From: a virus
Taxonomy: Duplodnaviria; Caudoviricetes
Length of the DNA: 64,000 bases
Virus record (IMG/VR): IMGVR_UViG_3300025016_000004
Direction: 5' to 3' (one strand)
Positions 30,435-31,745 of this stretch are shown piece by piece. The translations under genes and the position numbers were made by a program. The first letter of the stretch is position 1; each line of letters starts with the position of its first letter. The notes under the pieces are model-generated. The model did not search any database. It saw only the letters and a program-made list of their open reading frames with translations, and was not told the origin of the DNA.

Positions 30435-30924
30435 AATAATAATATTATGACAACTATGACAATTCTAAAAAACTTCCATATGGGAACCATAAAATGTTTT
30501 CCATGGAAAATAAATTTCTTGCACATGTAGATACCAAACGTATGAATTGGTATCTAGATAGGGATTTAGCTATCATGTTAAACGAATATAGATACCAATC
30601 ATTTTTAAAAGGGGCTATCCAAATCACCTGGTTCACCAGCCGAAGAGAGAAACTTCAAGCCCTTTTTATTTTTTAAATGCTGAAAATCAAGTAGTTAAAA
30701 AAAGTTTAAAATTTTTTGTTATTTTACTTGTTTTTTAAATATATATTATGTACATTTGCAGAGTAAAAATAGGAAAGTTATAATGAGGCGAAATCATTAT
30801 AAAACAACTTTAAGTGAGGCTCTTAAAACTTTTTTAAAAAAAATCGCAAAAAACTTGTTTAATTAAAAAATAAGTTGTATATTTGCACAAGAATTAAAAT
30901 ACGTTCATTAAAATATTGAAAATA

Positions 30925-31745
30925 ATGGGGTGCTTATGCTCCTTCCTTCGGGAAAAGATAAACCTAGTGATAGGTATAAAGTGATGTCCAAACAAGGCAT
31001 TGCGTTGAGGGCTTTCGGGTCAACAATCTGTGTAAGCATATTAACTACGAACAAGGGTCAATGGCTGAATGGCTGAGATTAACGAGTTCACTCCCTAGCT
31101 TCGGGGAGTTGAGATAGAAATATCAATAGGCGGTTAGTAGATTTCGGTTGAAACGTGTAAAAAGCGGATAGGCTGATTTCATCATGATTTGTTATGGAAT
31201 GTTTAATAATGATGCTTCATTATAATCTTGGGAAACCAAGCGTTATATTAAGTTAAGTTAATTTGTAAATCTAAGTAATGAAGAAATGATGTGGTGGTAA
31301 AACACTGCAACGGGGTGTCGTAAACTAAACTGGTCAAAAGCCAGCACGTTTGTCAACTGCTAGACACATCCTGTAAGAGAGAGCATCGCTAATCAATTAG
31401 GTGGGGCGATAGCCCAACCACTTTTATGTTAAAAAAGCAAAGATAAGTAAAAGTTCTAGCGGTCACGGATACAAAATTAAGTTATCCCACTGAAATATGT
31501 GGGCAGTTATTAACCTCACAAGGGTAACGCTGAAACGGAGACTAGGTATCGTTAGTAGGAGGGTCGCACCTTCTCATCCTCGCAAGGGAGCTAGGTAGTG
31601 AAATTGGTTTATATCAATCTGTGGTAAAAGAGTTTGCAGTCACTCCAAGACTGTCTTAATGATGCCTACCAAGTGGAAACATGAGGTGTGTGAAATAGGG
31701 AAACCGAAAGCAAAAGGTATTACAAGGGCCCAACACTCAAGCCTT
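30925..31745 (+). ncRNA. Large ornate ncRNA candidate (GOLLD/ROOL size class)
   Basis: ~820 nt, ORF-free, GC-enriched, own promoter (30878), many short-loop hairpins (TTCG, GAAA, GCAA, GATA), adjacent to tRNA array. Confidence 0.7.

Follow-up and report, generated by a model that had tools for sequence, protein, structure and literature searches.

A divergent GOLLD RNA gene at the head of a tRNA cluster in a large, uncultured phage of Bacteroidota-type hosts

Genomic context of the RNA locus

The stretch of viral DNA analyzed here (64 kb, referred to below as the window) carries 20 tRNA genes and, in its middle part, an open reading frame (ORF)-free stretch of about 1.5 kb (30680-32220). The neighboring genes are phage genes, among them those for a ligase, a polymerase, a sigma factor, an HNH protein, and a TnpB-like protein. 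The DNA comes from a large phage, as yet uncultured, whose hosts are of Bacteroidota type. Within the gene-free stretch, an initial annotation made from the letters alone had described positions 30878-31745 as an RNA of about 820 nt that is free of ORFs, enriched in G+C, provided with its own promoter, rich in short-loop hairpins, and located beside tRNA genes in a phage. It had likened this RNA to the GOLLD/ROOL class and had named an Rfam search, covarying homologs, and a full-length transcript as ways of checking the proposal.

An ORF scan (translation table 11) returned no ORF longer than 48 aa that overlaps 30878-31745, and even when TGA and TAG were both read through, no frame extended across the stretch, the longest reaching 115 aa with four read-throughs. 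The G+C content is 0.34-0.43 over 30800-32150, compared with about 0.25-0.33 on either side. Both properties are thus as initially described, and so is the setting, with phage proteins around the locus and tRNA clusters downstream. Within the 64-kb window, no other copy of the RNA was found. The window also holds two paralogous transposase genes of phrog_506 on the minus strand (22806-23924 and 52597-53793; E values of 1e-125 and 1e-135), which we take to be TnpB-like genes of the IS200/IS605 type.

Homologs in aquatic phages

Searches with blastn and megablast gave no DNA match to the RNA among 50,697 phage records. The 192-aa protein encoded next to it has relatives, and the contig of one of these (L001; homologous loci and contigs carry L numbers) contains an RNA-like stretch about 70% identical to that of the window, the two proteins being 58% identical in amino acids. 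Invariant blocks, used as exact patterns, led to further copies in viral contigs, and exact-pattern matching in metagenome contigs gave 17 copies, Tara Oceans samples included. With nhmmer, 22 loci were confirmed, representing 11 distinct sequences of 65-84% pairwise identity, all on aquatic phage contigs from groundwater, lake, and ocean. Two patterns had no match among 185,579 species genomes, and therefore no host or prophage link emerged from that set. A viral-contig search guided by the AAA ATPase protein returned no relatives, and seven contigs with relatives of the neighboring protein (L002-L005 and L009-L011) were too short or did not carry the RNA. One pattern, ATGGTAAAAGAGTTNGCAG, hit 16 loci, of which 14 were rejected as chance matches by nhmmer.

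As a separate observation, the genes for the AAA ATPase and the 192-aa protein flank an ABC-transporter-like trio in related phages, in which a permease and an ATPase accompany an NMT1/OmpA fusion (L001, 5817-9071; L002, 5373-8627; L005, 83-3334). The window has no such trio at this position.

A conserved secondary structure in two domains

From an alignment of the 11 sequences (A3), RNAalifold derived a consensus structure of 209 base pairs in 41 helices. In total, 96.3% of the cells were paired, compared with 88.4% after shuffling and 39-44% when the partners were slid, and 80 pairs had changes on both sides, compared with 38 ± 3.5 after shuffling and 7-21 after sliding; none of 500 shuffles reached any of the observed pairing measures. 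The folding energy of the single sequence (z of -1.2 for the plus strand and -1.1 for the minus strand) does not discriminate. Covarying homologs, one of the checks named at the outset, are thus at hand, and the five hairpins listed by the initial annotation are all helices of the consensus structure; most of these hairpins covary. On the plus strand, these are TTCC-TTCG-GGAA (about 30944-30955); CTCCC..GGGAG (31090-31109), in which a covarying stem bears an invariant loop containing AGCU (31097-31102); GATA-GAAA-TATC (31113-31124), whose stem covaries while its GAAA loop never changes; GGGC-GATA-GCCC (about 31404-31415); and CCT-CGCA-AGG (31577-31589).

The RNA divides into two domains, both on the plus strand. 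The 5′ domain (30927-31309) comprises about 14 helices according to RNAalifold and pair counts (helices 2-18), including a long arm (31182-31289) that bears a receptor-like UAUGG/CUAAG motif, and is very strongly conserved within the clade, with invariant blocks of 24-27 nt. The prediction pairs its 5′ strand, GGGGUGCUU..CUC (30927-30941), with 31377-31389; since the resulting helix never varies, covariation is silent on it. The 3′ domain (31310-31744; helices 19-38), as delimited by the cmscan alignment and RNAalifold, begins with the P13/P14 hairpin (31310-31374), whose loop contains an A-run (CAAAA, 31335-31339). Within GGUCAAAAGCC (31329-31345), 10 of the 11 sequences keep this loop unchanged, and its stem shows covariation at the pairs 479:489 and 480:488. 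An A-rich linker that varies in the alignment (31375-31463) is followed by a helix that closes a multi-helix core (31464-31470 paired with 31617-31623) and by the 3′ hairpins at 31630-31657, 31660-31722, and 31726-31744.

Relationship to GOLLD and ROOL RNAs

GOLLD RNA reportedly goes back to Weinberg et al. in 2009. RNAs of this class occur in phages near tRNA islands and measure 700-830+ nt; their 3′ region is conserved, whereas their 5′ region varies. The env-38 representative has 833 nt (5′ region, 1-420; 3′ region, 421-833) and forms a D7 cage of 14 subunits (Kretsch et al.), and the function of GOLLD is unknown (Kretsch et al.).

When 951 nt of the window were searched, positions 31310-31744 aligned with positions 1-416 of the GOLLD model (RF02032) at 59.5 bits (E = 9e-15). 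Three homologs likewise matched end to end, at 72.7 (L027), 65.8 (L001), and 65.3 bits (L041), so that end-to-end matches with E values from 1e-14 to 1e-18 come from four members, and a 46-kb search of eight loci added weaker matches in L036 (33 bits) and L012 (32 bits, partial). All members therefore score between 32 and 73 bits, which is below the gathering score that Rfam sets for GOLLD (150 bits), an operational cut-off rather than a biological feature. Rfam searches for a large RNA found none on the full 64 kb at the gathering score and none on 3 kb at E ≤ 10; these two nulls are explained by a filter artefact, as the match emerges once the query is about 1 kb. For ROOL, no match at E ≤ 10 was obtained on the 951 nt, nor was there one in the other Rfam searches. 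Of the two classes proposed initially, GOLLD is therefore the one that the Rfam comparison recovers, end to end though below the gathering score, and ROOL drops out.

Could the resemblance to GOLLD be confined to a few motifs that arose by convergence or reflect model bias, with the RNA belonging to a new family of large phage RNAs? Scores of 59-73 bits, well under the 150-bit gathering score, would allow this, as would the loss of one model hairpin, the gain of another, and the fact that the match rests on the 3′ domain, the 5′ domain having no known counterpart for comparison. Against it stand the E values and end-to-end model coverage, obtained for four independent members, and the coincidence of helices 19-38, which RNAalifold derived from the clade's own homologs without the Rfam model, with helices of that model, where they covary. 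Size, two-domain layout, phage origin, and tRNA neighborhood all fit GOLLD as well. We therefore regard a new family as quite improbable. Judged from sequence and alignment, the GOLLD homology of the 3′ half is statistically clear even at scores below the Rfam cut-off, and we conclude that the plus strand of the window, at about 30927-31744, encodes a divergent GOLLD RNA and not an RNA of a new kind.

The likeness extends to particulars. The RNA is about 820 nt long, has two domains, and aligns through its 3′ domain to the whole model; it possesses the P14 A-run loop, the A-rich variable linker, and CGCAAGG-type and GAAA loops, the loops common to it and the model consensus being UCAAAAG, two of CGCAAGG type, GAAA, and a terminal ..CUCA.. 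hairpin. Like GOLLD, it is borne by a phage, heads a tRNA cluster, and is highly expressed (see below). The differences are that (i) default annotation misses it, given scores of 59-73 bits against a gathering score of 150; (ii) the model hairpin at about 243-264, which is probably P21b, is deleted in the window and in L027, so that the RNA resembles that of Streptococcus agalactiae, whereas env-38 has P21b with its symmetric kissing loop; (iii) an extra 28-nt hairpin, given as 31558-31573, is inserted near the deletion; (iv) the 5′ domain is very strongly conserved within the clade; and (v) the carrier is a giant phage of a Bacteroidota-type host group. ROOL is comparable in that it is also a large, ornate RNA of phages and prophages, found near tRNAs and forming RNA-only cages, but its sequence and fold are unrelated to those of the window RNA. 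In the published GOLLD alignment (Kretsch supplement), the part examined already includes matches from Flavobacteriia metagenome-assembled genomes, and none of six conserved blocks of the present clade occurs among the sequences examined from it.

Putative promoters and a boxA-like leader

The initial annotation had credited the RNA with its own promoter, and a conserved promoter-like motif does lie just upstream. This motif, CTTGTTTA-N17-TATATTTG, occupies 30854-30885, and a second copy lies at 30727-30758. The distal copy, matched as CTTGTTT-N17-TACATTTG on the plus strand, would be a promoter (P1) of the Bacteroidota -33/-7 type; the proximal one, CTTGTTTAATTAAAAAATAAGTTGTATATTTG, belongs to a block that is nearly invariant upstream of all 11 homologs and is the putative promoter P2. 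The general motif CTTGTTT-N(15-22)-TAnnTTTG occurs five times in the 64 kb, compared with 0.11 occurrences expected, and two further copies head tRNA clusters, at 16548 and 32477. Tandem copies were also seen in the homologs L012, L036, and L032.

Between P2 and the RNA lies a leader (30890-30926, plus strand) that, in alignments and motif searches, contains a boxA-like element, GTTCATTAAAA, at 30903-30913. Its counterparts in homologs read GTTCTTTAAAA or GTTCTTAAAAA, usually after a small hairpin, and the order in most homologs is promoter, small hairpin, and (A/C)GTTC(T/A)T(T/A)AAAATATTGAAAATAAT. In Escherichia coli, the rrn boxA is UGCUCUUUAACAA, the core of which GUUCUUUA in the leader resembles at the sequence level. 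The rrn leader, with its tandem promoters, boxB hairpin, and boxA acting in NusB/NusE antitermination, offers a comparison for the GOLLD leader: tandem promoters, a small hairpin in most homologs, and a boxA-like GTTC(T/A)TTAAAA ahead of the RNA are common to both, but the window copy, GTTCATTAAAA, departs from that motif. The pattern GTTCWTWRAAA occurs in the window only at 30903 and at 32752-32762, a count that is not above chance. The second match is an exact boxA-type GTTCTTTGAAA that precedes tRNA-Pro (32777) by 15 nt, and it is the placement of the two matches, not their number, that is suggestive. In the literature searched, nothing directly supported TTCTTTGAAA as a type of boxA consensus. 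By analogy with rrn operons, the boxA-like element may act in antitermination.

In two homologs, about 130-150 nt separate the promoter from the boxA-like leader (L033, about 400-520; L029, about 2010-2150), and these inserts hold a fragment of a tRNA-like T-arm (GGTTCGAGCCCC and GGTTCAATTCC).

A tRNA-like element at the 3′ end

In every homolog, a cloverleaf follows directly 3′ of the RNA, with covarying acceptor, anticodon, and T stems. In the window, it is a non-canonical tRNA-like element at 31750-31820 (plus strand; helices 39-41, which covary, and folds) with an 8-nt T-loop, UAUCAAAU, an anticodon loop UAUUGCU that lacks U33, and a weakened acceptor stem. The 8-nt T-loop, UAUC(G/A)A(A/U)U, is common to the tRNA-like copies, most of which lack U33. 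Rfam recognized a tRNA at this position in L031, L012, L033, and L041, whereas the window copy (31750-31820) had no Rfam tRNA match. The anticodon loop varies between phages: it reads UUG with A33/C37 in the window and L036, canonical UUUUGAA (Gln-like) in L006, CUCUAAA (CUA, amber-type) in L031, UUA with A33 or G33 in L032 and L029, an 8-nt UUUCAAAU in L012, and GUA with G33 in L033. Downstream, in the window and at most homologous loci, follows a cluster of tRNA genes for Pro, Gln, Tyr, Lys, Thr, and Gly; for L012, L036, and L029, ARAGORN called no tRNA.

In the MALAT1/mascRNA system, a long non-coding RNA is followed by a tRNA-like element, at which RNase P cleaves. The arrangement in the window is analogous, in that a non-decoding cloverleaf follows a stable RNA whose contigs, described below, stop 8 nt before it, and by this analogy the element is probably a handle for RNase P processing. 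The two systems differ in that some relatives have an element resembling a tRNA fit for use, its anticodon being that for Gln or of suppressor type.

Transcripts in aquifer metatranscriptomes

The stretch is contained in six RNA runs, and four aquifer metatranscriptome runs, which come from the same year and habitat and possibly from a single campaign, were compared over 27000-37000. The RNA data consist of assembled contigs and not of reads, so that depths are no true profile and strand is not given. On this basis, the RNA is represented by contigs spanning 30933-31741 at a depth of 205 (X18), 30937-31742 at 475 (X19), 30975-31741 at 118 (X20), and 31057-31659 at 625 (X21), while the flanking protein genes have no cover and contigs of the tRNA region reach a depth of only 3-5 in the same runs. 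Since contaminating DNA would give even coverage of the phage, the RNA accumulates on its own. The longest contigs (806-809 nt) come close to the predicted length of 818 nt (30927-31744), and so the size of about 820 nt given in the initial annotation and its call for a full-length transcript find their counterpart in these near full-length contigs.

Illumina adapter letters stand directly beyond 31741/31742 in X18, X19, and X20 and beyond 30933 in X18, which marks these positions as preferred ends of the molecule. The adapter orientation is identical in the three runs, with the read-1 side at 31741, and a plus-strand RNA fits this orientation if the libraries are of the dUTP type. The true 3′ end probably lies a few bases past the contig end, because the last covarying hairpin needs 31741-31744, and such a shortfall is expected of random-primed libraries. 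Removal of the leader is probable, as the contigs do not cover it. Taken together, these data point to a stable, discrete RNA of about 810 nt that stands far above the neighboring genes.

This bears on whether the stretch might be nothing more than a long leader or spacer that is processed from the tRNA operon and lacks an independent function. Its promoter class is common to tRNA clusters, a tRNA-like element adjoins it, and no terminator lies between it and the downstream RNA genes, all of which a spacer would explain. A spacer would, however, hardly keep about 200 covarying or conserved pairs at 65-84% identity, the neighboring protein in L001 being only 58% identical in amino acids, nor would it be expected at a depth of 118-625 when tRNA-region contigs of the same runs have 3-5, and we consider this explanation highly improbable. 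A protein-coding stretch with a reassigned stop codon, which CUA, UUA, or UCA in the anticodon loops of tRNA-like elements at homologous loci and an ARAGORN call of a tRNA with anticodon tta ("tRNA-Stop") in L031 might have favored, is refuted for practical purposes, since every frame remains interrupted within the stretch when TGA and TAG are both treated as sense, substitutions in stems are compensatory, and indels of 1-2 nt occur inside conserved blocks.

Proposed biogenesis and mode of action

Returning to a divergent GOLLD RNA, we propose that its transcription would start at two strong promoters in tandem, of the class found at the phage tRNA operons, and that the transcript would pass through the boxA-like, rRNA-leader-like element, the leader then being trimmed off. 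The 3′ end would be made by an RNase P cut at the abutting tRNA-like element, followed by trimming to the last hairpin. Homology with the GOLLD RNAs of solved structure suggests that it would then self-assemble, with no protein involved, into a multimeric nanocage of dihedral symmetry whose ring is made by the 3′ domains and whose caps are made by the 5′ domains; the RNA would act during lytic growth in connection with the phage tRNAs and the takeover of translation. For this explanation as a whole, i.e., the divergent GOLLD identity together with the biogenesis and cage action outlined here, we estimate a probability of roughly 85%.

Structures have been solved for the 14-mer of env-38 (PDB 9MEE; Kretsch et al., Nature 2025) and the 12-mer of S. 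agalactiae (PDB 9L0R; PMC12990946), and GOLLD stoichiometry is 10, 12, or 14, depending on P21b and 5′ elements (PMC12990946). In env-38, the A-minor bridge B6 between molecules is formed by the conserved L14 A-run (Kretsch et al.). This bridge element is retained in the window RNA, which by homology probably forms a nanocage too. In its 5′ domain, the GAAA loop at 31113-31124 recalls the conserved L11a GAAA of env-38, and the AGCU loop at 31097-31102 is, in the predicted structure, a candidate for a symmetric kissing loop. Because the P21b-like hairpin is missing, subunit number or inter-shell contacts may differ, as they do between S. agalactiae and env-38, and the extra hairpin likewise suggests that contacts between the half-shells may have changed. 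That the RNA heads a tRNA cluster and has its promoter class in common with tRNA genes suggests a part in the tRNA and translation program of the phage.

A bolder version, which we consider rather unlikely, would make GOLLD in this clade the first product of an rRNA-style operon for stable RNAs, headed by tandem promoters and a boxA leader, with an RNase P end at a dedicated, non-decoding tRNA mimic and a cage that serves in translation takeover. If this were true, the long-noted tRNA neighbors of GOLLD would be processing handles, and the cage, lacking the P21b contact and perhaps having another subunit number, might, for example, hold phage tRNAs or ribosomal parts.

Only a handful of natural RNAs are known to form cages without protein, GOLLD being one of them. 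The 11 sequences from groundwater, lake, and ocean phages form a divergent clade that is invisible to standard Rfam annotation; the databases therefore probably understate how common GOLLD is among Bacteroidota-type phages. The metatranscriptomes add environmental evidence that the RNA accumulates as a discrete, roughly 810-nt species whose ends are defined and whose level greatly exceeds that of neighboring genes. Promoters of the tRNA-operon class, a boxA-like leader that would be removed, and a tRNA-like 3′ handle together make a testable model of biogenesis. As a natural variant without one inter-shell contact hairpin, the RNA should also be useful for learning how sequence sets cage size.

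Other RNA elements in the tRNA region

Beyond the cloverleaf lies a second tRNA-like gene (31885-31974), which Rfam matches as a tRNA at 34.6 bits and for which ARAGORN makes no call; about 30 extra nt replace its anticodon arm. The tRNA-like genes are followed by a module of about 85 nt (31977-32063), also present in L006 (3078-3161 and 3245-3332), that occurs in up to three tandem copies in relatives according to nhmmer and resembles a degenerate cloverleaf. RNA contigs over 31965-32382 have a depth of only 3-4. In the tRNA region of L031, immediately ahead of an unusual tRNA for which a 4-base anticodon was called, positions 2291-2368 give a sub-threshold match to the RAGATH-1 hammerhead ribozyme (48.9 bits, compared with a gathering score of 56.3; E = 3e-5).
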